Virus record (IMG/VR): IMGVR_UViG_3300027754_002682
DNA from: an uncultured virus (IMG/VR IMGVR_UViG_3300027754_002682)
Taxonomy: Duplodnaviria; Heunggongvirae; Uroviricota; Caudoviricetes
DNA: 20,000 nt
Direction: 5' to 3' (one strand)
The translations under genes and the position numbers were made by a program. The notes below the pieces were generated by a model, which saw only the letters and a program-made list of their open reading frames with translations, was not told the DNA's origin and did not search any database. Shown here one piece after another: positions 1 to 16,497 of this stretch (position 1 is the stretch's first letter; each line of letters opens with the position of its first letter).

Positions 1-1083
1 CGGAGATTGATTATCCCCACCTTTCACTTTTGGATTGCCGAATGTTTGATGATAATGATATAAACATGCACCTATTGCAGAACCACTATCCGATGGAGCA
101 AATGGTATAAATACATTCTTAATTGCCGTAAAGTGTTTGATTTTACCATTGGCAGTTCCATTATATGCACAACCACCACCTAATACTAAATTTTCACATT
201 CCCAAATATTTGTAATTCTATTGATAATAAAATATAATGCAGCTTCATACCATCTTTGTAATGAAGCAGCTAAGTCTTTATGATGTTGTTCTATTGGTTC
301 ATCTTTGAAACGTGGAGGAAATCCAATTAAATCTATTAACTTATCATTAAACATATCGTTATCCGATGTATGCCATGTAAAGTAAGACATGTCCATCTTT
401 ACGATGTCGATTTCACCACCGGTAGTAACAACTTTGTCAAATATGTTATTGTATTTTTGATTATCCCCATATGGAGCAAGTCCCATTACTTTATACTCAC
501 CTTCGTTTGGTTTGAATCCTAAATAAGCAGTAAATGCTGAATATATCAATCCTAACGAATGTGGAAAGTGTAATGTTTGTATTTTGTGAAACCCCTTCTC
601 ATCACACATTGCAGCGTATATAGTATGTGACTCACCAACTCCATCAATTGACAAACCTATTGCTTTATCAAATGGTGATGTATAGTAAGATAGTGCCAAA
701 TGTGAATGGTGATGTAATGAATATAAAATTTCTCCATCATATCCAATTGATTCTAATATTCCTTTTAAGTTACCTTCTGTTTCATTCCATCTTTTAATAA
801 ACTTTCTCCATTTCATTGGATATCTTAAACCACCCCACTTACCAATCGTCTCTCTAACTCTTTCAAATTTATCGTTTGGATTTTCATACCAACAAACCAT
901 ATCAATTTCATCAATTGTTATTTTTGCATATTCTAAACACCATTGAATTGCTTTAAACGGAAAAGAACTATCATGTTTTTCACCAGATAGTTTTTCTTCT
1001 TCAATTGCACATATTACTTTGCCATCTATAACTAATGCTGCTGCTGAATCATGGTAAAATGCTGATAAACCTAATTGTATCAT
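1..1083 (-). CDS. Carbamoyltransferase (NodU/CmcH/TobZ family), 5' part; runs off the left edge of the window
   Basis: Not in the ORF track; translated by hand from ATG at 1083: MIQLGLSAFYHDSAAALVIDGKVICAIEEEKLSGEKHDSSFP...HHHSH...SIDGVGE...HSLGLIYSAFTAYLGFKPNEGEYKVMGLAPYG...LVLGGGCAYN...PFAPSDSGSAIGA. These are the hallmark motifs of the Kae1-like N-terminal domain of O-carbamoyltransferases. Confidence 0.93.
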   Translation of the reverse strand, partial: MIQLGLSAFYHDSAAALVIDGKVICAIEEEKLSGEKHDSSFPFKAIQWCLEYAKITIDEIDMVCWYENPNDKFERVRETIGKWGGLRYPMKWRKFIKRWNETEGNLKGILESIGYDGEILYSLHHHSHLALSYYTSPFDKAIGLSIDGVGESHTIYAAMCDEKGFHKIQTLHFPHSLGLIYSAFTAYLGFKPNEGEYKVMGLAPYGDNQKYNNIFDKVVTTGGEIDIVKMDMSYFTWHTSDNDMFNDKLIDLIGFPPRFKDEPIEQHHKDLAASLQRWYEAALYFIINRITNIWECENLVLGGGCAYNGTANGKIKHFTAIKNVFIPFAPSDSGSAIGACLYHYHQTFGNPKVKGGDNQSP

Positions 1084-1086
1084 ATT

Positions 1087-2041: not shown

Positions 2042-2042
2042 A

Positions 2043-2678: not shown

Positions 2679-2681
2679 ATT

Positions 2682-2891
2682 TTATTTTTTTAATCCGTAT
2701 TTAATCCATTTATACCAAACTCTTTCGTGAATATAGTATTGTATGGGTTTATAAATCAATTCTGCTACTCCAAATGCTGCTCCAATTTTAATTGAACCAC
2801 TTATCAACCACATTAATAAGAAACCAACTATGGTACTTATAATACGATATGAAATGGTTTTAGCAATGTGTCTCTTACGCTCTACTATCAT
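2682..2891 (-). CDS. DUF2061-like small membrane protein
   Basis: KRHIAKTISYRIIST...YYIHERVW pattern with two hydrophobic segments. Confidence 0.75.
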   Translation of the reverse strand: MIVERKRHIAKTISYRIISTIVGFLLMWLISGSIKIGAAFGVAELIYKPIQYYIHERVWYKWIKYGLKK

Positions 2892-3270
2892 CTTCGGTAT
2901 CTATATTGTAAACGATTACATCACCATTTGAGTCGATGTATTTTTTTCTAATTGCAGTTCCACTAATTTGTTCTATTTCTTTTGGTGGTTCGTGATAGAT
3001 TACATCATATCCTACACCTCTACCATAGTTTACACTTTCAATATCAGGAATCATGCTGATTAGAATTTTATCTATGTTTTCTTTTATAAATGTTTCTTCC
3101 ATTAAATCCATCATGACTCTATGTCCTGATTTAGGATTGTTTTCATCGTTGGGTACATCCCTAACGGCTATCCAAACATTTTTACCTTTTTGTAATTGTT
3201 GATTTATTAACCACTCATGACCTTTATGCCATGTTTGCCATCTTCCAATAAATAATGCGTATTTTTTCAT
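2875..3270 (-). CDS. HIGH-superfamily nucleotidyltransferase (cytidylyltransferase-like)
   Basis: FIGRWQTWHKGH (GRxQxxHxGH motif), NP motif, and C-terminal ISGTAIR (SxTxIR). Confidence 0.85.
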   Translation of the reverse strand: MKKYALFIGRWQTWHKGHEWLINQQLQKGKNVWIAVRDVPNDENNPKSGHRVMMDLMEETFIKENIDKILISMIPDIESVNYGRGVGYDVIYHEPPKEIEQISGTAIRKKYIDSNGDVIVYNIDTEDDSRA

Positions 3271-3275
3271 ATTTG

Positions 3276-3307
3276 TAATATACGAAAATTATTCTAAACT
3301 ACCAAAT
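3276..3307 (-). promoter_or_regulatory. Repeated promoter motif TTTGG-N17-CGTATATTA (copy 1)
   Basis: ATTTGG-TAGTTTAGAATAATTTT-CGTATATTA, 5 nt upstream of the ATG at 3270. One of four copies with an identical 17-nt spacer. Confidence 0.75.
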
Positions 3308-3309
3308 AA

Positions 3310-4464: not shown

Positions 4465-4641
4465 TTATCTATTTATTCTTGTTAATTCTGTAACTCTTTC
4501 TACAATCTTCCTTGAATCTTCTAAAACTTCGATTGCTTGAGAAGGTGTAATTTGTTGAGCTCCGTTAATAACATTTTGTAAAATCCTCAACTTTCCGTCT
4601 AAAGATTCCAATAACATTTGTATTTTTTCGTTGTATATCAT
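4465..4641 (-). CDS. Small hypothetical protein (58 aa)
   Basis: Below the track cutoff: MIYNEKIQMLLESLDGKLRILQNVINGAQQITPSQAIEVLEDSRKIVERVTELTRINR*. It fills the gap exactly and its TAA abuts the next ATG. Confidence 0.75.
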   Translation of the reverse strand: MIYNEKIQMLLESLDGKLRILQNVINGAQQITPSQAIEVLEDSRKIVERVTELTRINR

Positions 4642-4645
4642 AGTA

Positions 4646-4653
4646 ATAAATAT
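4646..4653 (-). promoter_or_regulatory. Candidate late-promoter motif ATATTTAT
   Basis: Lies after a terminator and 4 nt before an ATG; the same arrangement recurs at 16945 and 18581. Confidence 0.4.
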
Positions 4654-4664
4654 TTGTTTATAAT

Positions 4665-4697
4665 AAAAAAGGTAGAAGTGTTTAAACTCCTACCTTT
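4665..4697 (-). terminator. Intrinsic terminator after hsp20
   Basis: Minus strand reads AAAGGTAGGAGT-TTAAAC-ACTTCTACCTTT followed by TTT; the stem contains one G-U pair. Confidence 0.8.
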
Positions 4698-4698
4698 C

Positions 4699-4730
4699 TA
4701 ATATACGAAAAATAACTGAATTAACCAACT
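4699..4730 (-). promoter_or_regulatory. Repeated promoter motif (copy 2), overlapping the hsp20 stop codon
   Basis: AGTTGG-TTAATTCAGTTATTTTT-CGTATATTA with a 17-nt spacer. Confidence 0.6.
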
Positions 4731-5107
4731 TTAGGGGTTAATTTTTTTGGTTTGGACTCTTCCTTTCTTTCAATAGTAATTAAGAGAATACCATTTTTAA
4801 TCTCAGCTTTTGCTTTTCTACCATCAAAGTTTTTACCTACTTGTACTCTTTCTTCAATGTCTGAAACCAATTGATTAAAAGGATTTTCTTTATCCTCTCC
4901 TATCTTTTTAGCTTTAATTTCAATTTTGTCCTCAAAGCAATTAATTTCAATATCTTTTGGGTCGTGCCCTAATACTGATAATGCAAGGGTTGCAGCTTCA
5001 TCTTTAATGTCTACTGCGAATTTGTTTTGAACATAAGTCGTTCTTGTCTTTGGTTGTTCGATTGGAAAAAATTCATCGAATAACTTACTGTAATCAATCA
5101 TGTACAT
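4721..5107 (-). CDS. Small heat-shock protein (HSP20/alpha-crystallin)
   Basis: LSVLGHDPKDIEI...IEIKA...AKAEIKNGILLITI...KPKKL; alpha-crystallin domain pattern, 128 aa. Confidence 0.88.
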   Translation of the reverse strand: MYMIDYSKLFDEFFPIEQPKTRTTYVQNKFAVDIKDEAATLALSVLGHDPKDIEINCFEDKIEIKAKKIGEDKENPFNQLVSDIEERVQVGKNFDGRKAKAEIKNGILLITIERKEESKPKKLTPKVG

Positions 5108-5143
5108 AATATAAATGTTTTTTAGTTAATAATACCCATATAG

Positions 5144-5160
5144 TCCAAATACTATACCAA
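5144..5160 (-). promoter_or_regulatory. Sigma54-like -24/-12 promoter candidate upstream of hsp20
   Basis: Minus strand TTGGTATAGTATTTGGA compared with consensus TTGGCACnnnnTTGCW; GG-N10-GG instead of GG-N10-GC. Confidence 0.4.
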
Positions 5161-5226
5161 CCCCAAATGTGTAACAAAGTTATGACAAAACTACCCTAAC
5201 TTTATTACAAATCGGAAAATCTGTCA

Positions 5227-5874
5227 TTAAATTGTGTTATCTTGTCTTTCAATGATTGTCGACATATGGTCTGCCCAATGCATAATAAATTGTAACTTAT
5301 AAACTAATTGTTTCTTTAAGTCGTGACCAGCTAAATACTTTTGATTATCTTCGTCATACATACCATCGGTAAGTTTGATTGCAAAATACTCTTTCTCATT
5401 ATACTGAATACCATAATGGTTCAATGTAAAGAAAGTTCTATCGGTTAGGGTCATATATGGAATATTCTCATTACGAACAAATAAAGTTCCGTATTTCTTT
5501 TGAGACCATTCTTCTTGATTTGGTAAATAATGTAATTCACCTCTAATACCTAACTTTCCCAAATCGTGATGTAGACAACTAAATATCAATTCTTCTTCGG
5601 TAAAATCTATCTCTCCACCTTGCATTACGAACAGGTCTCTCATTTTAAGAGCGTTCTTACATACATTAAAGATGTGGTCTATATACCCACCTATATATGC
5701 GTTATGATAGTGTTTTGAGCCTGATGCGGGTGATACTGCTAAATTACTACCCAATTCTTCTTCGGAATACATATGGAGTAATTTCTCCAATCTATCTCCT
5801 TTAAAATACTTCTTAATTATACCTATAAATCGGTCATAATTTGCTTTCAATTCTTGTTCTGTCTTTTGTTTCAT
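5227..5874 (-). CDS. HD-domain phosphohydrolase (YhaM-like HD domain)
   Basis: SPAS..HYHNAYIGGYIDH, LHHDLGK and HWADH motifs. Confidence 0.88.
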   Translation of the reverse strand: MKQKTEQELKANYDRFIGIIKKYFKGDRLEKLLHMYSEEELGSNLAVSPASGSKHYHNAYIGGYIDHIFNVCKNALKMRDLFVMQGGEIDFTEEELIFSCLHHDLGKLGIRGELHYLPNQEEWSQKKYGTLFVRNENIPYMTLTDRTFFTLNHYGIQYNEKEYFAIKLTDGMYDEDNQKYLAGHDLKKQLVYKLQFIMHWADHMSTIIERQDNTI

Positions 5875-5935: not shown

Positions 5936-6499
5936 TTATATTAACTTATTTGTAAATTTGGTATATCTAAGTTTATTATTTTTATTTAAAATATTTAAAA
6001 ATTTACTATCTACTATACCTAAATAATTATTTAATTTTTTTACATTTTCTCCAGTAATAAAAATTGATTCATATGTAAAATGTTCAGCTACTAATTTTAA
6101 TAAAAATTGTTTATCTTTTTCTAATTTTGTTTTTATATTATTTAATTTTTCAATATTAAAATTTTTAATATCGTTAATATTCCAATTAACATCCCATTTA
6201 TCATTTTCAATTGAATTATAAAAACTTTCGGCCTGCTCCATTACATCTTCTCTTGTTAATATAATAGTTTTATCAAATTTTGTTTTAATATCTTCAAATG
6301 ACATATTTAAATTTAATAATTCCCATTCCATAATTTTTACAACAATATTATCTTTAAGAAATAATGAATCTATATCAATTGAACCATTTTTATTTGAATT
6401 GGTTGGTTCATAAATTTTTTCTAGATTTAATGAATTACCAATGTATGTAGTTAAAGATGTTGACCCACATCTTCCTTGTGAAAATATTAGTATTCTCAT
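5936..6499 (-). CDS. Sulfotransferase-like protein (Stf0-like P-loop fold)
   Basis: N-terminal ILIFSQGRCGSTSL (PAPS 5'-PSB RxGST), EP motif, IILTREDVMEQAES (3'-PB R...S), FTYESI. Confidence 0.75.
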   Translation of the reverse strand: MRILIFSQGRCGSTSLTTYIGNSLNLEKIYEPTNSNKNGSIDIDSLFLKDNIVVKIMEWELLNLNMSFEDIKTKFDKTIILTREDVMEQAESFYNSIENDKWDVNWNINDIKNFNIEKLNNIKTKLEKDKQFLLKLVAEHFTYESIFITGENVKKLNNYLGIVDSKFLNILNKNNKLRYTKFTNKLI

Positions 6500-7563
6500 A
6501 TTAAACCCCTTCTTTTTTTAGGTAAATGTTTATCAATTATATCGTTCATGTTTGTATGAGAATTATATTTATTTACAATTTTTTCTAATTCAATTAAAAA
6601 TAAATTAAATTCAGGATGCTCTTCATTCCATATTTGTTTTAATTTATATTCACCATTACCAAATGTTCCCCAGTTTAATATTTTAGTAAACAATACTTCA
6701 TATCCAGTTGTAGCGTGTGGTAAACTCATAATCATTTTATAATAATCAAACATTTCTTTGTAATTGGTATCTTGTACAACAAAAGAAAAGGTTTTTTTTC
6801 GCATTGTATCGATGGTTGCTATAAATTTTATATTTTTTTGTAAAATATCCCAATCTCCACCACGTCTAACTATGTTGTATGTTTCCTTAGTTGCAGCATC
6901 TATACTTATATCAATTGTTTGTATAAATTCTTTAACATTTTTTAATTTATCCCACATTTGTTCATCTAATAATATTGCATTTGTATGAATGTGTATTGTA
7001 TTTAATTTTGGAAATTTAGTTTTATCAAAATTTAATAAAAAATTTCTAAATGTTTTTGAAGCAAATGGGTCAGCTGTACCTGATATGTAAAAACAATTTA
7101 TACTTTTTCCAAATACATCAATTACTTCATCCATTGTTTTATCTATAATATCTAATTTTTCACCACTAGCCATTATAAGTGATATTCTACACGAAGGACA
7201 TGATAAATTACAACTTCTATCAAATGCTAAATTAATCCTTAATGGGCCGGTGTTACCATATAATATTTTATTTAAATTTTTATCCGATTTTTTATGGAAT
7301 ACACTGCCAACTATATTGTTGTATACAAGTTCACTTATATATGGACACAATTGTTTATCACAATAAGAATATGAACCATCCAATACGGATTCTTGTATTT
7401 TTTTTAATGTATCACCATTATATACTTCATTTAATTTACCAACTTCTCCAACGGAGGTTGGTAACCAAGATGGACAACATGCCCATACCTGTTTATCATG
7501 TATTTCTAAATAATGAAATGGGCTACCACATACATATTCTTTTAAAATATCTTCTTTTGCCAT
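6496..7563 (-). CDS. Radical SAM enzyme with an N-terminal SPASM/twitch-like Cys cluster
   Basis: CNLSCPSC (CxxxCxxC), SGTADPF, HTNA, ISIDAATKETY..VR.GG; N-terminal CGSPF...WACC...YCDKQLC. Confidence 0.92.
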   Translation of the reverse strand: MAKEDILKEYVCGSPFHYLEIHDKQVWACCPSWLPTSVGEVGKLNEVYNGDTLKKIQESVLDGSYSYCDKQLCPYISELVYNNIVGSVFHKKSDKNLNKILYGNTGPLRINLAFDRSCNLSCPSCRISLIMASGEKLDIIDKTMDEVIDVFGKSINCFYISGTADPFASKTFRNFLLNFDKTKFPKLNTIHIHTNAILLDEQMWDKLKNVKEFIQTIDISIDAATKETYNIVRRGGDWDILQKNIKFIATIDTMRKKTFSFVVQDTNYKEMFDYYKMIMSLPHATTGYEVLFTKILNWGTFGNGEYKLKQIWNEEHPEFNLFLIELEKIVNKYNSHTNMNDIIDKHLPKKRRGLI

Positions 7564-8097
7564 TTATTTTAATTGTGTTGTTGCTGTTATGGTCATTTGT
7601 TGTATTTCTATATTGTGTGGTTGGTTTAAACACCATTCGACTACCTCAGCAACTTTATTACATTCGATTTTATTAAAATTGTTAAAATTTTTATGTGAAT
7701 CAAGTGTTCCTAAATTTAAATTGATAATTCTAACTTTTTTATTTGGATATTTATCAATTAAAGATTGCGTAATATTATTTAAATGTTTTTTGTTTGCAAC
7801 ATATTGAGGACTCCATGCTCCTGATTGATGTATAGAACTACTATTTATGTTTATTATTGTTTTTTCTAAATCTTTCCATTTATCAAATAATTTTAAAATT
7901 AAATCGGATTGTGTTGTTTCATAATACACATTATTTATAAAAATATCACAATTTTCTAATTTTTCTATTATTTTATTCGGTGATTGAACATTGTATCCAT
8001 TTGTTCTACTAAACCCAATTACATCATATAATGTAATTAATTTATCATATATTGCTTTACCTAAACCTGCAGTATGTCCTGTTATTCCAATTATCAT
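7564..8097 (-). CDS. Short-chain dehydrogenase/reductase (compact)
   Basis: ITGHTAGLGKAI (TGxxxGxG), DIFINN, IININS, YVANK (YxxxK). Confidence 0.88.
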   Translation of the reverse strand: MIIGITGHTAGLGKAIYDKLITLYDVIGFSRTNGYNVQSPNKIIEKLENCDIFINNVYYETTQSDLILKLFDKWKDLEKTIININSSSIHQSGAWSPQYVANKKHLNNITQSLIDKYPNKKVRIINLNLGTLDSHKNFNNFNKIECNKVAEVVEWCLNQPHNIEIQQMTITATTQLK

Positions 8098-8594
8098 AAT
8101 AATCCTTTTTTTAATTCTAAATTATCTATATGCAAAAATGATATTATGCTCCACCTTTCTCCATCGGTAATTTCTTTAACTGCATGTTCTCTTAAACTTG
8201 GAAAAGTATATATTTCACCTTGTTTTTTTGGTAATATTTCATATGGTTCATATAATACAAATTCCCCACCCGTATAATCATCATTTAAACAAACACCTAT
8301 ATTATGTATTTGTGTTGGATATAAATCGTCCTTGTGTTTAGTAAATTTATTACCCTGTTTATAATTATGTAAATATATAATGTCTAATTCTTTTTTTATT
8401 TTAATTCCTGTTGTGTTTGTAAAATAATTAAATAACTTATCAAAAATCCACTGTGTTTTTGGAGTTCTATGTATATTCCAAACATTATATTTTATATCAT
8501 TTTCATTTTTAAAATATAAATTTGAATCTTTTTTTTCAATATCTTTTGATAAAAGTATAATCCCATTACATTCTTCTTTGGTAAAACAAATCAT
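8094..8594 (-). CDS. 2OG-Fe(II) oxygenase (prolyl-4-hydroxylase-like)
   Basis: HKD...LNDDYTGGEF...HAV..ITDGERWS. Start is probably MICFTKEEC at 8594, giving an ATGA overlap with the SET gene stop. Confidence 0.88.
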   Translation of the reverse strand: MICFTKEECNGIILLSKDIEKKDSNLYFKNENDIKYNVWNIHRTPKTQWIFDKLFNYFTNTTGIKIKKELDIIYLHNYKQGNKFTKHKDDLYPTQIHNIGVCLNDDYTGGEFVLYEPYEILPKKQGEIYTFPSLREHAVKEITDGERWSIISFLHIDNLELKKGLL

Positions 8595-8977
8595 AATAAT
8601 TTTTTTGCTCTTGCTTTCCAATATTTTTCACCATAATTGTGGCACATCTCATCGCCGATTTTAATATCAATTAATGAATAAAAATTAATAATCTTTTTTT
8701 CATAATCAACAATATTCCACATAATATTTGGTGTATAACTATGATTATATATACTACCAAATCCAAACGGTAGATAATGTTTATTATTTTTAACATCAGT
8801 AAATACATAATCATATGATGGGTGTGTTATTATTGCAAAATCCATAATTAAACAATAACACATTTCTATTAATGTATTTTTTTTAATATTTTTTAGTGCA
8901 AATACACCAAATCCAATTTTATCATTTATATATCTAACCTCTATTTTATTAGATGGTTTTATTTTAATCAATTCCAT
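8591..8977 (-). CDS. SET-domain protein-lysine methyltransferase
   Basis: GFGVFA, YNHSYTPN (NHSxxPN), DIKIGDEMCHNYG..YW (ELxxDY). Confidence 0.92.
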   Translation of the reverse strand: MELIKIKPSNKIEVRYINDKIGFGVFALKNIKKNTLIEMCYCLIMDFAIITHPSYDYVFTDVKNNKHYLPFGFGSIYNHSYTPNIMWNIVDYEKKIINFYSLIDIKIGDEMCHNYGEKYWKARAKKLL

Positions 8978-9628
8978 TTAGATTATAGTTTTTACAATTT
9001 CATTTTTTCTGTGTCGTATGATTGGTATTACACATTGATTCCAATCGGGGTTAAAATAAAATCCCTTACCACTTTCATATTGTTCTTTTTTTGATGGGAT
9101 ATTATTTAATGTTAATATTTTTTTATCAAATTCAAATTCTTTGTATAAAATATCGGTAGTTCCACCATTTACGATTTGAAAAGATATTCCTTCCCAATAA
9201 GAAAATACTCCGTTTTCTTTTAATATATTTTTTAAATGTGGTAAAAATATTTCATAAAAGCCATCATCTTCCCAGGTATCAAAATATATTCCATCAAATT
9301 TTGGTAAATCATTTATAACATCTTGCCATTTACCAAATATTATTTTTACATTTGGTTTCTTATCCCAACCATCTTCTATCATTTTTGAATAGACATCTGG
9401 ATGTGCTTCTATTATTGTATGTGAATTTATTGGATATGTTTCTATAAAAGAATCGATTATTCCCATACCAAATCCTATATTCAGTATATCACCACCAGAT
9501 TCGCAAATTATTTTAGCAGATTCATACATCCATTCGGTCTCCCAATCCATCATAACAGCATGTCCCTTTTCATCTATTAATCTACCATCGATTGTATATT
9601 TTAATTTGTGTTCTAAATAATTTTTCAT
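8978..9628 (-). CDS. Class I SAM methyltransferase, RMT2/GAMT-like
   Basis: VMMDWETEWM, ILNIGFGMGIID, HTIIEAHPDV, GKWQDV, FDGIYFDT, GVFSY; these closely match protein arginine N-methyltransferase 2 and guanidinoacetate methyltransferase motifs. Confidence 0.88.
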   Translation of the reverse strand: MKNYLEHKLKYTIDGRLIDEKGHAVMMDWETEWMYESAKIICESGGDILNIGFGMGIIDSFIETYPINSHTIIEAHPDVYSKMIEDGWDKKPNVKIIFGKWQDVINDLPKFDGIYFDTWEDDGFYEIFLPHLKNILKENGVFSYWEGISFQIVNGGTTDILYKEFEFDKKILTLNNIPSKKEQYESGKGFYFNPDWNQCVIPIIRHRKNEIVKTII

Positions 9629-9631
9629 TTT

Positions 9632-10153
9632 TTAAAATAACTTTCTTTTTTTAGTAAGAAAAAATTGTAAAGTAATTCTATCTTCTGCGTTTATATTAGT
9701 TGTTGTTACACAATGTTTGGTTCCTGCTTCTAAAAGTATTCCTAAGTTTTTTTGTGGTATAATACCTGTTATTTCATTATCTTTTTTGTAAAGAAATATA
9801 CCACCCCAGTTTTCTTTCCAATCTTCATTTAAATAAATTGTTAATGCATGTTCACAATGGTCATCTAAATGCCATGGAATATATGCTAATTTTGGAAAAA
9901 TATGAACAACCATATCAGTTATAGAATATTGGGTTTTTTTTAAAACAACTTCTTTTATTTTATCAAATAAAGCTGCATCATTGTTTTCAAACTGATATCT
10001 TATAATTGGACTAGAGTGTGCTTTAAGGCCTTCTTCCCATCCTCTATTGGTTGTTAATTTAGATTGTTTAGAATTCATTATTGTTTTTATAAAATAAATT
10101 ATTTCTTTAAATAAATCTTCATCAAAAAAATTATCAAATTTTTGTATACACAT
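9632..10153 (-). CDS. 2OG-Fe(II) oxygenase
   Basis: IPWHLD...TIYLNEDWKENWGG...HCV...RITLQ. Confidence 0.88.
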   Translation of the reverse strand: MCIQKFDNFFDEDLFKEIIYFIKTIMNSKQSKLTTNRGWEEGLKAHSSPIIRYQFENNDAALFDKIKEVVLKKTQYSITDMVVHIFPKLAYIPWHLDDHCEHALTIYLNEDWKENWGGIFLYKKDNEITGIIPQKNLGILLEAGTKHCVTTTNINAEDRITLQFFLTKKRKLF

Positions 10154-10154
10154 A

Positions 10155-10955
10155 TTAAATTATTTTATTATTTTGTATAGGTAAATAGTTTGGGTGGTTT
10201 TTTAAAATATATTCGTATAATAGGTGTGCGTATTTTTTGTTTGTATGCGGGCCCGAATGTATATTATCAACACCATAATCCAAAACATACGGGCCTTCAC
10301 CATCAAATCTATTATTTTCAACATAAGTGGGTGTTGAATTTGTTCCGTTCCACACCCAATTACATTTTTTAGTTTCTAAAAAGTATTTTATTAATAAATG
10401 ATTTTTATACCAATTATTTATAAAATCATCATATATATTTAAATTTTCTACAAAATTTTTGTGAATTTGTTTACCAGTATCGGTTTCCATAAAATCCCAA
10501 GTTGATGTTGGCATAAATGGTTCAACACTTGCCGTTTCTGTATAATATTCTTTTCTATGAAAAATTGTATAAAATATTAAAACTAAATCAGGTTTAATTA
10601 AATCATAGTATGTATGTAAACATCTTACTATATAATCATTACTTCTACCTGCACATCCAAAATTTAAATCAACTCCATTTGGTACTAATTTTGCAAATTG
10701 TGCCGGCCAAGTTTCATTATCATTAACGCCAACTCCTTCGGTATATGAACATCCAATCGACATTATTTTGAATCCTTTTTTAGTTGGTTCGTCACCTCTA
10801 AAACCTAATGAATTATAAGTGTAGGTACACAAACCACTGGTATCGTTTGCCGATTTATCTGTTTTTAAATTTCTTCTTCTTTCTAAACTATCTCTATAAT
10901 AACTTGATATTTCAAATGTATTTACATTCCAAAAATTTAATGGATTATTACTCAT
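10155..10955 (-). CDS. SGNH/GDSL-like hydrolase or acyltransferase
   Basis: YNSLGFRG, SIGCSYTEGVG (block I), NFGCAGRSN (block II), DNIHSG (DxxH). Confidence 0.75.
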   Translation of the reverse strand: MSNNPLNFWNVNTFEISSYYRDSLERRRNLKTDKSANDTSGLCTYTYNSLGFRGDEPTKKGFKIMSIGCSYTEGVGVNDNETWPAQFAKLVPNGVDLNFGCAGRSNDYIVRCLHTYYDLIKPDLVLIFYTIFHRKEYYTETASVEPFMPTSTWDFMETDTGKQIHKNFVENLNIYDDFINNWYKNHLLIKYFLETKKCNWVWNGTNSTPTYVENNRFDGEGPYVLDYGVDNIHSGPHTNKKYAHLLYEYILKNHPNYLPIQNNKII

Positions 10956-11464
10956 AACAAACTTTTTGTATCTTTTTTTGTGATATTTCTAAATCGTAAA
11001 AGACATAATAAACTATATCTTATTCCATTTATTATAGGTTTAACTTCGTGATAAACATCGGAATCATAATTATAAAGTTCACCCACAGGTTTATTGTAAA
11101 CTAAATCATTTAAATAAAAATCACCACCTATATAATCATCATTAAGTCTTGTATTAATATTAGCAATGGCACCATGTGTAAAAGTAGTGTGGAATTTCGT
11201 TTTATCCATATGTCTACCAAAAAAATCACCATTTATATATTTTAAAATATACACTTCAAAATTATCAATTTTATATTTTGATAAATTTTCATTAATATAT
11301 TCTTTAAATACTTTTTGGGGTGTACTAAATTCTGATATTTCTTTGATAAAATATCTATTATTTTTACGCTCTATTCTATCCCATTCGTTTAATGTAATAT
11401 TTTCTGCATAATCGATAATTTCATTACATTCAAACTTTAAAAATTGTATTTTATCAATAGACAT
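10952..11464 (-). CDS. 2OG-Fe(II) oxygenase
   Basis: FGRHMD...LNDDYIGGDF...HEVKPIINGIRYSL. Confidence 0.88.
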   Translation of the reverse strand: MSIDKIQFLKFECNEIIDYAENITLNEWDRIERKNNRYFIKEISEFSTPQKVFKEYINENLSKYKIDNFEVYILKYINGDFFGRHMDKTKFHTTFTHGAIANINTRLNDDYIGGDFYLNDLVYNKPVGELYNYDSDVYHEVKPIINGIRYSLLCLLRFRNITKKDTKSLL

Positions 11465-11465
11465 A

Positions 11466-12038
11466 TTAAATAAGAATTTTATTTTCTTCTATAATCTCCC
11501 AATTATGTATTGGCATGACAATAGACCATCTATTTCCATTTGTTATTTTTTTTATTTCATGTGGAACTCTGCAATGATAAAATAAAGCAGTACCAGTTTC
11601 TTTTGGTAATACTATTGAATCACCATTTTTATCGTAACAAACATACTCTCCACCTTCATATTCTTCGTTTAATTGAATTCCTAAATTATACCTTCTTTCT
11701 TCAAATCCTTTTGATAAATCTATATGTTTGGAAAATTTATCGCCTACGATATATTTGTGTAATGTACAATTCGGATGTTTTATTTCTTTATTAAATTTAA
11801 CACCAGTTTTTTCAGAAAACCAATTAATTAGTTTATTAAACATCCACTCTGTATTTTCGTTATTATCAATACTATATACATTATATGATGCTGCTTTTGG
11901 AAAAACTATTCTATTTTTTTCATATTTTCCATTCAAATGATTAGAAAAATCAAAATTTATATCTTCATTTGTATTTTTTGAGAAATTTATAATTTTTTCA
12001 CACTCTTCTTTTGTAAATATTTTCTCGTATTGAATCAT
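11466..12038 (-). CDS. 2OG-Fe(II) oxygenase
   Basis: FSKHID...QLNEEYEGGEY...HEIKKITNGNRWSI. Confidence 0.88.
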   Translation of the reverse strand: MIQYEKIFTKEECEKIINFSKNTNEDINFDFSNHLNGKYEKNRIVFPKAASYNVYSIDNNENTEWMFNKLINWFSEKTGVKFNKEIKHPNCTLHKYIVGDKFSKHIDLSKGFEERRYNLGIQLNEEYEGGEYVCYDKNGDSIVLPKETGTALFYHCRVPHEIKKITNGNRWSIVMPIHNWEIIEENKILI

Positions 12039-12046
12039 ATAGTAAC

Positions 12047-12649
12047 TTATATTAATTTATTAGGTTTAATTCCATATCTACCATTAAAATCATTCATACT
12101 TTCATTTGAACGATTTAGATGAAAATATATTGGTGTTGGTATAAAATATTCTGTCTTTAAAAAATTTTTAATGCTAATTCCAAATTCTTTGTCTTCTTGA
12201 TTTCGTATATGTTTAAATTTAACTTTATCTATTATTTCTTTTTTAATTGGACATTTCTGGTCAGGAGCAATGTAGAATGTATTTTTTTTAAATTCCCACA
12301 TATGTTTTATTGAATAATAAAAAAATTCATTTGTCCATGTTTCTTTATCAATTGGTGATTTATGCGTTATACAATCAACATTTAAATCAATAGCTTTCAT
12401 GATTAATTGGATTGCATCTTTACTAATCCAATCATCATCATCCCATTGAACAACATATTTACCCGTTGCCATTTCATTTAATTTGTTTCGTTTTTCACCT
12501 ATCGTCATATCTTTATTATCACATAAGGAAATAATTTCAATCTGATTTCCGTAAGGATTTGATTGGCGTACAATTTCTTCGTAGAATTCTTCGAAACATT
12601 TTTTTCTCCTTTCAACGGTTGGTATTGTGATTGATAGTAATGGTTTCAT
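12047..12649 (-). CDS. Glycosyltransferase family 2 (GT-A fold)
   Basis: LSITIPT, IGEKRNKL..MATGKYVVQWDDDD (DxD), QED. Confidence 0.88.
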   Translation of the reverse strand: MKPLLSITIPTVERRKKCFEEFYEEIVRQSNPYGNQIEIISLCDNKDMTIGEKRNKLNEMATGKYVVQWDDDDWISKDAIQLIMKAIDLNVDCITHKSPIDKETWTNEFFYYSIKHMWEFKKNTFYIAPDQKCPIKKEIIDKVKFKHIRNQEDKEFGISIKNFLKTEYFIPTPIYFHLNRSNESMNDFNGRYGIKPNKLI

Positions 12650-12657
12650 TTGTATTC

Positions 12658-13218
12658 TTATAAAAAAGATTTTATTTTTTCATGCGTTGGCCAACAATTT
12701 AACGAATATCTCATTCCACTTTTTATAACATCAATTCTATGTTGTGTTGTTGATTCAAAAATTATTAAAGTGCCTGTTTTTTTACTAAATTCTTTTTGTT
12801 CGGAACCATTCATATAATAAAAACTTCCTCCTTCATACTCTTCATTTAATTGGATTGCAATTGTTAATGTTGCATTATTAAATTTAATTTCTGCCCCATC
12901 TTTATGCCAATCTAAAAAATCATCAATCATATATTTGTTAAAAGTATATGCGCGTATTTTTTTATATGCAATTCCTTTTAATATATTTAGTTCATTTAAT
13001 TTATTTATAATTTTATCATTTAAAGATTCGAATTCTGATGCATTTATAAATTTTGCTTTTCTTTTATTAAATATGTAATCCGAAAAACTTTCTGAATTTT
13101 TACTAAAGTCCATTGTAGAAGCATCTTCTAATTCATATTTTTTTGATATGGTATTTATAATTTCATCACATTCTTCTTTTGATAAGAAATCAAATATTTC
13201 AATTGCAGCTTCTTTCAT
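12658..13218 (-). CDS. 2OG-Fe(II) oxygenase
   Basis: FLSKEECD, LDWHKD...QLNEEYEGGSF...HRI..IKSGMRYSL. Confidence 0.88.
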   Translation of the reverse strand: MKEAAIEIFDFLSKEECDEIINTISKKYELEDASTMDFSKNSESFSDYIFNKRKAKFINASEFESLNDKIINKLNELNILKGIAYKKIRAYTFNKYMIDDFLDWHKDGAEIKFNNATLTIAIQLNEEYEGGSFYYMNGSEQKEFSKKTGTLIIFESTTQHRIDVIKSGMRYSLNCWPTHEKIKSFL

Positions 13219-13742
13219 TATAATAATGTTTTTTTATTTTTGGTTTCTGTTTCTAAAAAACAAATTAATGTATATCTATCACCTTCAATAACATTTTTTA
13301 CTCTATGTAATAATAGAGGATTCTGCATAATTGATACTCCTTTTTTTGGTTTTATTTCTACAAACACATCATTATCATCTACATATTCATATTCTCCACC
13401 TAAAAAATTATCATTTAAAAATGTAATCATAGTAAATTGTGATTCATCTGTATGAAAATCGGCATTTATATTATATTGATTGGTAATTTTATTAATCCAA
13501 ATTGCTTCAATTTTTACATTTAAATTAAAATTTTTTTTTATATAATTTAATAATTTATTTTGGTAATTTAATAAATCTACATTTTTATCTAACATCATTC
13601 TATGATAAAAATTTTGATATGTATTTTCCTTTATTGTTATACTATCTACTGGTACACTATTTGAAACAAAATTATTCATTGAATTTTTTAAAAAATCAAA
13701 TTCAATATCATTTAATAATACATTATCTATAAACCTAACCAT
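13218..13742 (-). CDS. 2OG-Fe(II) oxygenase
   Basis: DFHTD...FLNDNFLGGEY...HRV..VIEGDRYTL. Likely start is MVRFIDN at 13742, 1 nt after the upstream stop. Confidence 0.88.
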   Translation of the reverse strand: MVRFIDNVLLNDIEFDFLKNSMNNFVSNSVPVDSITIKENTYQNFYHRMMLDKNVDLLNYQNKLLNYIKKNFNLNVKIEAIWINKITNQYNINADFHTDESQFTMITFLNDNFLGGEYEYVDDNDVFVEIKPKKGVSIMQNPLLLHRVKNVIEGDRYTLICFLETETKNKKTLL

Positions 13743-13743
13743 A

Positions 13744-14016
13744 TTACAATAACTTTTTATTAAATATTTTTGGGTGTTGTACATCCACTTCGTTCCATTT
13801 CTCTAATGGACAATCATTGAATGTTCCAGTAAATATTTTTTTTGATAATGGACAACCACATTTTCCACAGATGGTAGGAAATCCCTTAATATATTCTGTT
13901 CTTTCAGGACACACATTACATATTTTTAATCTTTTTTCAGCAAGTGTTTTTTGTTCTTCTCCACCAAACCAAGAATCAAACCAGGCCTTTGATATTTTTT
14001 TTAAATCTAATTCCAT
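13744..14016 (-). CDS. Small Cys-rich putative metal-binding protein (DUF6171-like pattern)
   Basis: RLKICNVCP...CGKCGCPL..K......CPLEKW; first gene after promoter copy 4. Confidence 0.7.
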   Translation of the reverse strand: MELDLKKISKAWFDSWFGGEEQKTLAEKRLKICNVCPERTEYIKGFPTICGKCGCPLSKKIFTGTFNDCPLEKWNEVDVQHPKIFNKKLL

Positions 14017-14033
14017 AATAACATTATAATGTT

Positions 14034-14065
14034 TAATATACGATTTTTTATTTGAATTGCCAAAT
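14034..14065 (-). promoter_or_regulatory. Repeated promoter motif (copy 4), heading the enzyme operon
   Basis: ATTTGG-CAATTCAAATAAAAAAT-CGTATATTA, 17 nt upstream of the ATG at 14016. Confidence 0.75.
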
Positions 14066-14075
14066 TATTTATAAT

Positions 14076-14119
14076 AAAAAAAGGTTCTAAGGTTTATTTC
14101 TAAAACCATTGAACCTTTT
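14076..14119 (-). terminator. Intrinsic terminator after the ATP-grasp-Hint/small-ORF unit
   Basis: Minus strand AAAAGGTTCAATGGTTT-TAGAAAT-AAACCTTAGAACCTTTT followed by TTT; bulged stem plus U tract. Confidence 0.7.
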
Positions 14120-14140
14120 CTATAATAATTAAAAAAAATT

Positions 14141-14254
14141 TTAATTATTTTGTATATCAGTTTTTATAGCTGAAACAATTTCTACGATTTTTGTTGAAAT
14201 CGCTGCTTTTTCTTCTATTGATAATTCGATTATTTCATGTTTAATTATTGCCAT
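14141..14254 (-). CDS. Small peptide ORF (37 aa)
   Basis: Below the track cutoff: MAIIKHEIIELSIEEKAAISTKIVEIVSAIKTDIQNN*. It has an A-rich leader and lies between the Hint gene stop and the terminator. Confidence 0.6.
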   Translation of the reverse strand: MAIIKHEIIELSIEEKAAISTKIVEIVSAIKTDIQNN

Positions 14255-14278
14255 ATTATTTATTTTTATTGTTTTTTA

Positions 14279-15745
14279 TTATTTTTGTGTACAGGATGCA
14301 GGATTACAATTACCACATTGTGCGTAACTTTGACATGAAGGCCATTTACCTCTTGAGCTACATATAGCGTTACACACATTATGTTGAATTACTGCTAAAT
14401 TATTTGCTACTAATGGTAAGAATACATCTTTTGCTTCAACATTAATTTCACCAAGTCTTATGTTTTCTTTAAAAATTATATTTAAATTTGAAACTGTTTT
14501 ATGTACTAATGTGTAATTTATAGTTTCTATACATTCTACAACATCACCTACAACAAAATCATTTACCGTTTTAAATCTAATATTATCACCTTCTTTTACC
14601 AATATGTGTGATGTTTCATTATCATCCCATTGAGTACCATCCTCAAATGTTATTCTTATAAACAAATCACTAAGTTCTTGTGATTCTATTTTATCTATAA
14701 CTTGTGAAGATGTTACATAAAAATTTTCTGAGAAATTTTGGAAAGAACCAGTCCATGTATTCATATTCGCTATAACTTCATCATCATCTAAATCAGGAAT
14801 TGCAATTGATTTAACCTGGTCTCCAACAACAATATCATCAAATATTTTTATACTTCCATCGGCCATAGTGATATCTTCATCGACATCAACAATATAGTTT
14901 ACTCTATCTTCAACATTATATGTGTATGTTATGTATTTTGGTCTATCTTTTTTATCCATTAATCCATTTGAATCAAATGTTGATTCCCATATATCGACTG
15001 GTATCATGTTTCCAACTTTATAACCACCCAATGAAATGATATCTAAGTTTCCACCATAAAGTAAATCAATACCTCTAACAATTGAATGTGTATTATTAGT
15101 AAGTTCTGATGGTATATATTCTTGTATAAACTCTTCAGTTCCGTTTATAGAAGCTTTTAAATCATTTAATTCTTGTACTGATTTTATTTGATATAGTTTA
15201 GGAAAAACATATTTGTCGTAATTAGGATATCTTTTTTTAACAATAAAATTAGGTATACCCTCTGTGTATGTAATTTCCGTTAAACCCACAAAATCATCAA
15301 CTACATCTACTATATATGATTTTGGTTTACATTCTAAAGAATCTAAGGCTTTTATAAAATTATATTTATCGGCTGCATAATCAGAATCAATAATTGCGGT
15401 AGTATCATATGAAATTCTAATTGTAAATGAACCTTCTACATCCTCAATGTATGGAACCGTAATACTACCTTGAGTAGTTTCATATGCGTTGAATGTGATT
15501 CCACCTATTTGATTTTCACAAATATCTTTTATAATATCTTTAATACCATTATCATATGCCGGATAAATTACATTTACCGATGTAAAATTATTTGATTCGA
15601 TAAATAATTTTATATTATTCCACTCTAAAATGCTTACATCCAAATCTTCCAATACACCTAAACTGGCATTAGTGTTAGTTTCTAAAACCTTATATTCACC
15701 GGTTGAAGTTTTAATGTAATCCGTAGCTATTAATACTGCTTTCAT
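14279..15745 (-). CDS. Circularly permuted ATP-grasp-like domain + Hint (intein-like) domain + Cys-rich C-terminal peptide
   Basis: N-terminal ATDYIKTSTGEYKVLETNTN (D..G...LExN), then PNFIVKKR and FIQEYI..VR. Hint domain at about aa 285-456: ITMADGSIKIFDDIVVGDQV, IRITFEDG, VNDFVVGDVV, EINVE..DVF...IQHN. The tail is VCNAICSSRGKWPSCQSYAQCGNCNPASCTQK. Confidence 0.8.
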   Translation of the reverse strand: MKAVLIATDYIKTSTGEYKVLETNTNASLGVLEDLDVSILEWNNIKLFIESNNFTSVNVIYPAYDNGIKDIIKDICENQIGGITFNAYETTQGSITVPYIEDVEGSFTIRISYDTTAIIDSDYAADKYNFIKALDSLECKPKSYIVDVVDDFVGLTEITYTEGIPNFIVKKRYPNYDKYVFPKLYQIKSVQELNDLKASINGTEEFIQEYIPSELTNNTHSIVRGIDLLYGGNLDIISLGGYKVGNMIPVDIWESTFDSNGLMDKKDRPKYITYTYNVEDRVNYIVDVDEDITMADGSIKIFDDIVVGDQVKSIAIPDLDDDEVIANMNTWTGSFQNFSENFYVTSSQVIDKIESQELSDLFIRITFEDGTQWDDNETSHILVKEGDNIRFKTVNDFVVGDVVECIETINYTLVHKTVSNLNIIFKENIRLGEINVEAKDVFLPLVANNLAVIQHNVCNAICSSRGKWPSCQSYAQCGNCNPASCTQK

Positions 15746-15862
15746 GTTTCTTTTTGTTTATTTCTTATAAGTATATATTAATTTCAATTTTGAATTATAT
15801 ATATTATTTTTTTTATTGTGATTGTGAATATACAAATATATATCGACATTACAAAAAATATC

Positions 15863-15880
15863 GGCGGGGGTTGGGGGGGG
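15863..15880 (+). repeat. G-rich tract GGCGGGGGTTGGGGGGGG
   Basis: Directly visible in an otherwise extremely AT-rich intergenic region. Confidence 0.8.
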
Positions 15881-15936: not shown

Positions 15937-16497
15937 TTATATTAATTTAATAGGAATACGCTCTCCATTTAACATCTTAGTCAAATAAGGTTTATCATTT
16001 TCTATCATACTATATAATTTATTTAACGAATCGGTATTGACCATTTCTATTATCGTTGAAGTGGTATCCGTAGAATTATGATAATAATTCATATTGTAAT
16101 TATTTGGGTCGTATGGAATATCGGTAAACAAATTTGACAAATAGGTTAACTCTATAACTTTAAACTCTATTCTATTCCAATGGTTATACATATAGTTAAA
16201 TAGTATAGGAGACCAATGTGTGCCCGTACCATTTAAAAAAGAATTTATAATTGTATCTATATCACCACCATCGAATTCAATTGCAGTTCTAATTTCAGTT
16301 TTTAAAGCAGATTCTAAATGTTCTCTACCCACTCTATATACCCAGTAAGTATCTTTTGTAATGTTTTCGATTTTATATATAGTAGATAGTTCTTCTATTG
16401 ATGTGGGATTGGTTTCGTTTTCTAGCCACCTTGTACCACATTTTAAAGGTGCGATTATATCTAATCCATTTTCGTATCGAAATCTTTTTAAAACCAT
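15937..16497 (-). CDS. Divergent sulfotransferase-like protein
   Basis: IIAPLKCGTRWL (KxGT PAPS-binding loop), VYR....HL.SAL, THWSP; pattern of the Sulfotransfer_2 family. Confidence 0.55.
   Translation of the reverse strand: MVLKRFRYENGLDIIAPLKCGTRWLENETNPTSIEELSTIYKIENITKDTYWVYRVGREHLESALKTEIRTAIEFDGGDIDTIINSFLNGTGTHWSPILFNYMYNHWNRIEFKVIELTYLSNLFTDIPYDPNNYNMNYYHNSTDTTSTIIEMVNTDSLNKLYSMIENDKPYLTKMLNGERIPIKLI

Follow-up and report, generated by a model that had tools for sequence, protein, structure and literature searches.

Organization of the island

The DNA analysed here (the window) is a stretch of 20,000 nucleotides (nt) from an uncultured virus of the Caudoviricetes, taken from IMG/VR record IMGVR_UViG_3300027754_002682. 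It carries an island of enzyme genes next to a gene for a 488-amino-acid (aa) ATP-grasp-Hint protein with a short Cys-rich tail, which we have named AGH (14279–15745, minus strand). From the comparison with related loci described below, we conclude that this island is real, coherent and tied to AGH. Every open reading frame (ORF) of the window lies on the minus strand, and the G+C content of the window is 22–35%.

The array next to AGH consists of 14 co-directional, almost gap-free ORFs that run from 14016 down to 5936 in the order Cys90, 2OG188, 2OG186, GT2, 2OG190, 2OG170, p266, 2OG173, p216, SET, 2OG175, SDR, rSAM and p187 (Table 1). The junctions between them measure −4 to +8 nt; two exceptions, with apparent overlaps of 41 and 31 nt, hinge on the start codon chosen. 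A tightly packed array of 14 genes had been proposed in an initial annotation of this DNA, and the ORF map confirms it. The range given there for the array, 5936–15745, is too wide, as it takes in the AGH gene itself, and the array does not follow AGH directly as was stated, since a 262-nt spacer holding a 37-aa ORF, a hairpin and a promoter-like site lies between the two. Upstream of AGH, the gene for p186up is a fifteenth member of the set, with the same C-terminal motif as the array proteins; p186up has no Pfam or NCBIfam family match, and its relatives were recovered by the sulfotransferase-like profile. The 190-nt spacer upstream of AGH also contains a run of cytosines (C8-AA-C5-G-CC-G, 15862–15880, minus strand) in a genome of about 27% G+C.

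On the downstream side of the array (1–5874, minus strand) lie backbone genes encoding an HD phosphohydrolase, Hsp20, a 384-aa membrane/coiled-coil protein (p384), a cytidylyltransferase-like protein, a peptide deformylase (PDF) and a carbamoyltransferase, and this gene order is kept in many relatives.

Table 1. Features of the island and its surroundings (2OG, 2-oxoglutarate; SDR, short-chain dehydrogenase/reductase; rSAM, radical SAM enzyme; pLDDT, predicted local distance difference test; AF2, AlphaFold2).
Feature	Position	Strand	Description	Evidence
AGH	14279..15745	-	ATP-grasp-Hint protein, 488 aa	
ATP-grasp-like domain	14906..15745	-	AGH residues 1 to ~280	AF2 model and Foldseek
Hint/intein-fold domain	14378..14893	-	AGH residues ~285–456; ends His455-Asn456	Foldseek
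Six-Cys tail	14282..14377	-	AGH residues 457–488, 32 aa; proposed core peptide; ends in Lys	pLDDT <50
Small ORF	14141..14254	-	37 aa; starts 24 nt past AGH stop	
Terminator-like hairpin and T-run	14077..14121	-	between 37-aa ORF and array	
Promoter-like site	14035..14063	-	TTGGCA-17-TATATT, upstream of first array gene	10/12 consensus matches
Cys90	13744..14016	-	90 aa; six conserved Cys (CxxC...CxCxC...C); C-terminal motif	AF2 pLDDT 90
2OG188	13218..13784	-	2OG-Fe(II) oxygenase, 188 aa	PHROG phrog_61 7e-13; HTD...H...RYT; no Pfam match
2OG186	12658..13218	-	2OG-Fe(II) oxygenase, 186 aa	PF13640 6e-10
GT2	12047..12649	-	family 2 glycosyltransferase, 200 aa	PF00535 1e-6; phrog_8858 2e-22; DDD motif
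2OG190	11466..12038	-	2OG-Fe(II) oxygenase, 190 aa	PF13640 1e-10; triad kept
2OG170	10952..11464	-	2OG-Fe(II) oxygenase, 170 aa	PF13640 19 bits, under cut-off; phrog_2297 7e-11; triad kept
p266	10155..10955	-	SGNH/GDSL-like, 266 aa; weak assignment	Pfam E 0.012; NCBIfam E 0.0036; GCSYTEG
2OG173	9632..10153	-	2OG-Fe(II) oxygenase, 173 aa	PF13640 27.8 bits vs cut-off 27; triad kept
p216	8978..9628	-	guanidinoacetate/RMT2-type methyltransferase-like, 216 aa	atlas feature search alone
SET	8591..8977	-	SET-domain methyltransferase, 128 aa	PF00856 2e-11; NHS and GDEMCHNY motifs
2OG175	8094..8621	-	2OG-Fe(II) oxygenase, 175 aa	PF13640 2e-9; triad kept
SDR	7564..8097	-	short-chain dehydrogenase/reductase, 177 aa; ends TQLK	PF00106 1e-8; GxxxGxG, YxxxK
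rSAM	6496..7563	-	radical SAM enzyme, 355 aa	PF04055 6e-9; CxxxCxxC as CNLSCPSC
p187	5936..6499	-	Stf0-type sulfotransferase-like, 187 aa; last island gene	protein-atlas look-alikes; RCGST P-loop
p186up	15937..16497	-	186 aa; upstream island member; ends in IKLI	P-loop-like KCGTR
Carbamoyltransferase	1..1083	-	~5 kb outside the block of motif-bearing (tagged) genes	

Domains and tail of the AGH protein

AGH has no sequence match in Pfam, NCBIfam, PHROG or PDB, and its architecture was read from an AlphaFold model computed with 64 relatives (pLDDT 85, with residues 459–488 not confident). In Foldseek searches the N-terminal part matches glutathione synthetase (2hgs/8fbz), YjfC/YgiC (7uk6/7uk8) and 5oev with E values of 6e-6 to 2e-5, the TM values being low since the chains align in part only. 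The alignment reveals E22, N24, K170, R172, Q208, E209, R224, R268 and K270 as invariant or nearly invariant in this part, and the first six of these residues may map to the ATP/Mg-binding active site. AGH itself gives no Pfam or NCBIfam family at E ⩽0.01, and its relative P0112 gives PF14397 alone (E 0.045).

The second domain has a Hint/intein fold, with Foldseek matches (1at0 at E 7.8e-8, 6y75 and 2in0; target-normalised TM 0.7–0.8) that include the Hedgehog autoprocessing domain, a bacterial intein-like (BIL) domain, BIL2, and mini-inteins; PF07591 matches were also found on AGH relatives. H455, N456, C458, C462, C471 and C477 are invariant in 64 AGH sequences. At the start of the domain no conserved Cys, Ser or Thr nucleophile is present within residues 280–300 of the alignment, where position 1 was placed by eye and where Y284 and D287 are the invariant residues; an hhalign comparison of the AGH profile with the second Hint of P0112 aligned pseudo-symmetric halves at a probability of 10% and did not fix position 1. 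Since this Hint has neither a nucleophile at position 1 nor one at position +1, splicing is excluded, and the fold together with the conserved His-Asn makes cleavage after Asn456 by Asn cyclisation plausible.

The tail beyond Asn456 contains six Cys, five Ser, three Asn, three Gln, two Lys, two Pro and one each of Arg, Trp, Tyr and Thr, but no Asp or Glu, and the residues listed for it in the initial annotation (Arg, Lys, Pro, Asn, Trp, Tyr, Ser and Cys) are all there. We have pooled 206 short tails from AGH relatives and loci, which are 21–48 residues long and hypervariable between fixed Cys residues in the alignment; in long forms of AGH the peptide may reach about 100 residues. Exactly six Cys are found in 178 of them, a Cys at position +2 after the Asn in 170, and a C-terminal Lys in 113, with Lys or Arg within the final three residues in 59 more. 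Because the window tail and 82 of the 206 pooled tails lack Asp and Glu altogether, the C-terminus is the sole carboxylate common to all tails.

What follows the Hint varies among the longer AGH relatives. Some carry a Peptidase_S74-like module after a longer Cys-rich stretch, at a junction ...K|SD (in P0109 the match has E 2.8e-4 and 21.6 bits, against a cut-off of 22), and others carry a second, canonical Hint after the Cys-rich part; a second self-cleaving module in this place fits a need for free peptide ends.

Families of the array enzymes

Pfam matches at or above the curated cut-off were obtained for 8 of the 14 array proteins, namely rSAM, SDR, SET, GT2, 2OG175, 2OG190, 2OG186 and 2OG173. 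The HxD...H iron triad and the 2OG-binding Arg (HxD...H...RxS/T) are kept in all six 2OG proteins of the window, four of which pass the PF13640 cut-off; in an alignment of 59 relatives of 2OG186, the corresponding H105, D107, H160 and R170 are invariant. The best NCBIfam family for rSAM is N_Twi_rSAM (NF033640), at 52 bits against a cut-off of 170, which is not reached. Its extra Cys residues stand at positions 12, 29, 30, 68 and 73, ahead of the CxxxCxxC motif, with none past residue 280, and the auxiliary cluster is therefore N-terminal.

The other assignments are looser. Relatives of p266 from other islands match DUF6071/GDSL. For p216, the top protein-atlas clusters in the feature search are 100% PF27704 (score 0.98), and Pfam gave a single chance-level row (Mito_carr, E 0.24). 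Likewise, p187 has no Pfam match and resembles Stf0/sulfotransferase atlas clusters with a structural TM of 0.71–0.75 and a feature score of 0.96. The enzyme families named in the initial annotation are thus borne out for rSAM, SDR, SET, GT2 and the six 2OG oxygenases, while the sulfotransferase and RMT2-like labels come solely from atlas look-alikes and the SGNH label is weak.

Conservation of the island among relatives

AGH has 248 relatives in IMG/VR and 562 representative clusters at E ⩽0.001. We have collected 80 AGH-anchored loci from IMG/VR and a further 80 centred on the conserved gene for the HD phosphohydrolase, and have searched their ORFs with the window proteins and with iterated profiles, counting 81 unique AGH loci. 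In 78 of the 81, a 2OG oxygenase is encoded no more than 7 kb from AGH, so that the expected co-occurrence, taken from AGH to the arrays, is indeed found, and Cys90 is present in 75. In a stricter set of 28 unique loci, in which AGH is flanked by 5 kb or more on either side, 27 have 2OG oxygenases (mean 3.1, maximum 7), 25 a sulfotransferase-like gene, 25 Cys90, 15 an SGNH/DUF6071 gene, 14 a Trp halogenase, 12 an rSAM of the present type, 9 a guanidinoacetate methyltransferase-like (GAMT-like) gene and 5 a SET gene.

AGH, the small ORF behind it, Cys90, 2OG and sulfotransferase-like genes make up a core that is stable down to 30% identity in AGH, and the module is intact in two backbone arrangements, either upstream of HD-Hsp20-p384 or downstream of carbamoyltransferase-p131. 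Around the core, the content differs greatly even between close relatives whose HD genes are 88–100% identical; other islands add an Asp/Asn beta-hydroxylase, a B12-type rSAM, FkbM methyltransferases, an arginine-deiminase-fold protein, a dTDP-sugar epimerase, GT4 and GT9. Two loci with a near-identical HD gene, L160 (3447–9209) and L131 (282–9885), lack AGH, and there the same slot holds GT7, GT2, GT25, UDP-glucose dehydrogenase, a methyltransferase and a 460-aa rSAM; from these glycan-type modules it follows that the slot swaps whole modules. The link between AGH and the enzymes is well supported by comparison but unproven.

Two further observations concern the surroundings and the order of the island. 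In one backbone arrangement, ORFs of 1438–1901 aa with weak coiled-coil-type matches follow the island (L009:16780–21434, L012:15802–21506 and L058:13829–18145). DNA contigs from other samples join distant island positions (for example 6004 to 13556 and 8914 to 13518) through short matched sides of 20–24 nt, possibly because the cassettes of related strains stand in another order or because paralogues cross-match.

A shared C-terminal motif

Thirteen of the 14 array proteins, as well as p186up, end in K/N-x-L/I/F-L/I/F, the SDR being the sole exception in the array. This motif spans about 15 unrelated families of island proteins and is absent from AGH and from the backbone genes of the window. 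Among unique relatives, a hydrophobic terminal pair is kept in 2OG186 (65/66), 2OG190 (29/29), 2OG175 (28/28), p216 (15/15), SET (10/10), p187 (51/53), halogenase (32/33), Cys90 (70/79), rSAM (32/43) and DUF6071 (44/52). For the backbone, Lys or Arg ahead of a hydrophobic pair is found in HD (1/71), Hsp20 (1/66), p384 (0/68), p131 (0/71), PDF (0/45) and carbamoyltransferase (1/47). The tagged fraction of genes downstream of AGH is 82% at 0–2 kb, 15% at 6–8 kb and 4% at 8–10 kb, and upstream it is 67%, 14% and 23% at the same distances.

Outside the AGH loci the motif is scarce. The oxygenase and halogenase homologues of Pelagibacter phage HTVC008M do not have it, apart from one of seven (...YKIV) that fits a loose pattern, and the slot genes of the AGH-less L160 and L131 include one motif-bearing gene each, the p187 homologue of L160 being without it. 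One tagged 2OG gene (...KTII) stands outside the main island in L049 (17584–18102), between the cytidylyltransferase-like and deformylase genes, so that tagged genes can occur beyond the AGH block.

Such uniform gene ends could also arise without any common function, if the island were a hyperplastic slot of unrelated cassettes and the ends marked a nucleotide-level junction for translational coupling or recombination. The highly variable content between relatives with nearly the same HD gene, the tight packing of the genes and the contigs that join different island positions (weak, because their matched sides are short) would agree with this, as would the A-rich last 21 nt and the preference for ATA over ATT, with an ATA share of 0.69 at the two terminal positions of the motif, the last codon included, against 0.48 in the gene body (n=470 genes). 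However, the motif is tied to the stop codon and not to the next start, whatever the distance between them, being kept on the last gene and before gaps of 8–61 nt. Leu codons at the motif are used at close to background rates (TTA 0.75 vs 0.66), and the terminal residues are L, I, F or M and not K, N or Y, whose codons are just as A/T-rich. Cassettes that replace the island in L160 and L131 rarely carry the motif, and AGH, the small ORF, Cys90, 2OG and sulfotransferase-like genes make up the stable core noted above. We consider this explanation of the island highly doubtful. Since the motif is tied to the stop codon and codon use is close to that of the gene body, we read it as mainly a protein feature, with a nucleotide-level contribution being possible. 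Its role could be that of a tag by which the enzymes dock on AGH or Cys90, of a degradation signal, or of a boundary between cassettes; in any case, the shared motif is a new observation that any explanation of the island must cover.

The same distribution bears on a second alternative, in which the enzymes build or decorate a small molecule derived from sugars or amino acids, or a surface polysaccharide, and AGH is a functionally separate occupant of the same variable slot. The GT2, SDR, SGNH and Stf0-like families of the array would suit such a pathway, as would the dTDP-sugar epimerase, GT4 with FkbM, and GT9 of related islands, the carbamoyltransferase and cytidylyltransferase-like genes close by in the window, and the plain glycan modules in the slot of L160 and L131. 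For a cyanophage cluster that combines a halogenase, a cupin and methylases with carbamoyltransferases and 2OG dioxygenases, the passage devoted to it proposes a pathway for a secondary metabolite or for capsule decoration (Iyer et al. 2021, PMC7824862). On the other side, the glycan modules of this slot are mostly without the motif that AGH-linked enzymes carry, the carbamoyltransferase and cytidylyltransferase-like genes are untagged and lie beyond the tagged block, and the enzyme sets stay with AGH where the backbone is rearranged. A SET domain is essentially a protein-lysine methyltransferase, and its presence in the array speaks against a small molecule or glycan as product. A pathway of this kind is improbable in our view.

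Spacer elements and Cys90

An ORF of 25–52 aa starts 1–47 nt past the AGH stop codon in 80 of the 81 unique loci, and its sequence sub-types track the tail type. This conserved small ORF is a new observation, absent from the initial annotation.

Between the small ORF and the array of the window, the 86-nt stretch 14065–14150 folds with −22.6 kcal/mol (z −5.19, with none of 200 shuffles as good), a value that covers both the terminator-like hairpin at 14077–14121 and a second one. The second hairpin is an A/T-only palindrome at 14124–14149 (minus strand), which reaches into the 37-aa ORF at its 3′ end and directly precedes the G+C-containing hairpin. A consensus terminator scan of the window missed the 14077–14121 hairpin. 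As a general trait, a hairpin after AGH beat the coding-region control in only 28 of 80 loci, in a crude comparison that covered 160 nt downstream and left the hairpin of the window partly beyond its range. The promoter-like site in front of the array is weak, because such sites are not enriched over shuffles: 96 sigma-70-like sites were found in the window against 107 expected, which is uninformative, so that the single promoter proposed earlier for the array cannot be shown. The T4-type late-promoter word TATAAATA was equally uninformative (7 found against 9.6 expected).

Cys90, the first product of the array, was recovered in 75 of the 80 AGH-anchored loci and is always the immediate neighbour of AGH, whether downstream or upstream. 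Its confidently modelled fold has no Foldseek match at E ⩽0.001 (best, VIA Z 3.7).

A possible peptide factory

From these data, the reading that we favour, with slightly less than even confidence, is that the island is one functional unit around AGH that makes a heavily modified Cys-rich peptide, similar to peptides that are synthesized ribosomally and then modified post-translationally (RiPPs), the tail being tailored and then released by His-Asn cyclisation. AGH is made as a chain of ATP-grasp domain, Hint domain and 32-residue tail, as the structure model shows. Its large body would then be a leader or scaffold of its own, on which the tail is modified by the enzymes of the island. The tailoring set would comprise the six 2OG oxygenases, the SET and guanidino-type methyltransferases, GT2, SDR, the SGNH-like protein, the rSAM with its N-terminal cluster and the two sulfotransferase-like proteins. 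The Hint, having lost its N-terminal nucleophile but kept its His-Asn, would then cut after Asn456 and set the peptide free, to be liberated at lysis or to act inside the infected cell. More speculatively, the ATP-grasp domain may use the C-terminus of the tail for ligation or ring closure, the small Cys protein may be an adaptor, the 37-aa ORF an antidote and the C-terminal motif a docking tag.

Several features speak for the tail as the substrate. The tail has the character of a precursor core, with a six-Cys frame and variable positions, and the tailoring genes are both co-located and co-conserved with AGH (2OG in 27/28 and sulfotransferase-like genes in 25/28 of the stricter loci). Protein- or peptide-directed families, namely SET, P4H-type 2OG, Asp/Asn beta-hydroxylase, Trp halogenase and the twitch- and B12-type rSAM, also point to it. 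At 27 of 28 halogenase-bearing loci the tail has at least two Trp residues, the exception being L002, which has no Trp although a halogenase is present; of the 24 loci whose flanks reach 6 kb or more, 12 have a Trp-rich tail and a halogenase, 6 a Trp-rich tail without one, 6 a Trp-poor tail without one, and none a Trp-poor tail with one.

A considerable number of points weigh against this reading. The covariation of Trp with the halogenase, like that of Lys with SET, is confounded by descent, as there are two independent pairs alone and a sign test is powerless. The residue at +1 after Asn456 is variable (A, L, S, P, G, V and others) and provides no nucleophile. Distant relatives (P0232, P0211 and P0237) have two or three tandem canonical Hints, each C...HN, right after the AGH Hint, with linkers of 2–5 residues and without a Cys-rich peptide, P0232 having three in tandem, and P0248 carries about 540 aa of cargo past His-Asn that is not Cys-rich; the C-terminal cargo of the AGH family is therefore polymorphic. 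Few or no recognisable oxygenases are found at the AGH loci L053, L143, L158 and L103. No RiPP recognition element, peptidase or exporter is present among the Pfam/NCBIfam matches of the window proteins, and thirteen catalytic genes for a 32-residue peptide would be extreme. GT2, SDR, SGNH, Stf0-like sulfotransferase and guanidinoacetate-type methyltransferase families more often act on sugars or small molecules, and a similar cyanophage cluster is described in print as a small-molecule or capsule pathway, in the passage that deals with it (PMC7824862). Homologues of the 2OG and halogenase genes exist without AGH in HTVC008M, among structural genes. With its A-rich end and preference for ATA over ATT, the motif could partly be a DNA-level junction. 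Finally, both cleavage and modification of the tail are predictions.

Alternatively, the tagged enzymes could be a coherent module that modifies another protein, such as a virion fibre or a host protein, with AGH as one more member of it, for example a ligase that attaches the released Cys-rich peptide to this target; the clustering of the motif around AGH fits any shared-target model. The long AGH forms end in the Peptidase_S74-like intramolecular-chaperone module, a type usually seen in tail fibres and spikes; in HTVC008M the oxygenase and halogenase homologues lie between neck, terminase and sheath genes; and coiled-coil ORFs of 1438–1901 aa come after the island in L009, L012 and L058. However, no recognisable structural gene flanks the island of the window, which has HD, Hsp20, PDF and carbamoyltransferase genes on one side and, on the other, ORFs without matches in the libraries searched. 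The near-universal adjacency is to AGH, the small ORF and Cys90 and to no large protein, and no candidate target co-varies with the island. A different protein substrate is thus rather unlikely, to our judgement.

Hyper-modification of the released peptide or of a virion surface protein had been suggested in the initial annotation. What stands of this suggestion is that enzyme arrays co-occur with AGH, stay with it across backbone arrangements and share a C-terminal motif; enzyme homologues also occur without AGH, several island families suit glycan or small-molecule chemistry as well as they suit peptides, and the peptide is a putative substrate. The suggestion would suffer if homologous arrays usually lacked the Hint gene, and in the direction from arrays to AGH this is partly the case, as the 2OG/halogenase genes of HTVC008M come with no AGH match.

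Returning to the peptide reading, in its fullest form the island would be an undescribed viral peptide factory, in which a self-cleaving AGH carries a hypervariable cystine-frame peptide, up to about 14 enzymes are recruited by their C-terminal tag directly or via Cys90, the Hint frees the N-terminus, the ATP-grasp domain closes or ligates the peptide via its C-terminus, and the tiny ORF encodes an antidote. We regard this complete scheme as unlikely to hold in every part.

Distribution and significance

AGH belongs to a large and viral family. A megablast search with the island and a tblastn search with two AGH proteins gave no match in 50,697 phage records, and a scan of 185,579 prokaryote genomes with an AGH pattern gave 50 pattern matches, none of which was confirmed. 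Searched with the AGH profile, the complete records of HTVC008M, of a cyanophage and of Flavobacterium phage immuto yielded nothing, an empty answer that proves little. The nearest cultured relatives are distant, the HD protein being 39% identical to that of Flavobacterium phage immuto.

The stretch of the window is present in freshwater and lake metagenome runs of several studies. Contigs from RNA libraries of two studies are identical to parts of AGH, Cys90, 2OG188, 2OG186, 2OG190 and 2OG170, which we take as a weak sign of island transcription; these contigs cover small parts, cannot give levels or transcript ends, and may stem from DNA carry-over.

In the full-text literature, leaving aside subscription journals and supplements, which were outside the search, we have found no published description of an ATP-grasp-Hint-peptide protein or of such an island. 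Since at least 2010, multiple small 2OG oxygenases and flavin halogenases have been on record for T4-like phages of aquatic habitats, with no known substrate (PMC3037559), and the entry for the viral halogenase VirX1 in a further account lists no natural product (PMC8407142). Because neighbourhood and C-terminal motif tie these enzyme families to one concrete candidate, which could be produced and its mass measured, the substrate question becomes directly testable. If the peptide reading is true, the tail would give the oxygenase and halogenase genes of aquatic phages, long unexplained, a natural substrate, and lytic phages would make hyper-modified, fast-evolving peptides as a new player in phage–host or phage–phage conflict. 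A Hint that acts as a self-removing leader would be useful for peptide engineering, and a common tag on unrelated enzymes would represent a new way to assemble a biosynthetic pathway.

Comparison with known systems

Parallels in enzyme content are found in T4-like cyanophages and in HTVC008M, which have the same enzyme families and several small oxygenase genes in a row; L049 and HTVC008M share 37% identity in their halogenases, and 2OG186 has about 25% identity with cyanophage proteins. Unlike the present island, the cyanophage and HTVC008M genomes give no AGH match, and the HTVC008M enzymes, bar the one loose match in seven, are without the motif. For the cyanophage oxygenase arrays, roles in 2OG/nitrogen signalling or DNA repair are proposed in the passages on these genes (PMC3037559). 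The cyanophage 'sugar- and amino-acid-modification' cluster of 8–12 genes (for example in S-SSM6a, PMC7824862) likewise has a halogenase, several 2OG genes, methyltransferases and a carbamoyltransferase in one neighbourhood. Its description, by which we set it apart, names no precursor-like protein and no Hint in the part concerned with this cluster (PMC7824862), and in the window the carbamoyltransferase is 5 kb outside the tagged block. That cluster has carbamoyltransferases and a HemK-like methylase at its core, whereas no HemK-like methylase is present among the Pfam/NCBIfam matches of the window proteins.

With inteins, BIL domains and the Hedgehog autoprocessing domain, AGH shares the Hint fold, the terminal His-Asn and, by eye, blocks resembling the F and G motifs. 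Unlike in inteins, there is no Cys or Ser at position 1 and no nucleophile at +1, so that cleavage on the C-terminal side alone is plausible.

Polymorphic toxin systems with a pre-toxin HINT domain were reportedly described by Zhang et al. in 2012. AGH resembles them in having a conserved body, a Hint, a highly variable C-terminal cargo and then a small variable gene directly downstream, as well as in the PF07591 matches on its relatives and the one 540-aa cargo that replaces the peptide. It differs in that its N-terminus is an ATP-grasp enzyme, its cargo is usually a Cys-rich peptide of 21–48 residues, its Hint lacks the N-terminal nucleophile and an array of tailoring enzymes stands alongside, toxicity and immunity being putative. 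No secretion or trafficking domain is seen among the AGH family matches, a signal-peptide predictor not having been run.

RiPPs include the six-Cys SCIFF/ranthipeptides matured by radical SAM enzymes, the glycocins with their GT2-type S-glycosyltransferases, and the sulfated RaxX. Like RiPP clusters, the island has a variable peptide with fixed Cys residues beside co-conserved oxygenases, methyltransferases, a radical SAM enzyme, a glycosyltransferase and sulfotransferases, and a removable N-terminal part stands ahead of the putative core. Unlike them, it has no recognition element, protease or exporter among the Pfam/NCBIfam matches; its 'leader' is a 456-residue ATP-grasp and Hint protein that would remove itself, its enzymes share a C-terminal tetrapeptide motif, and the whole system is phage-borne.

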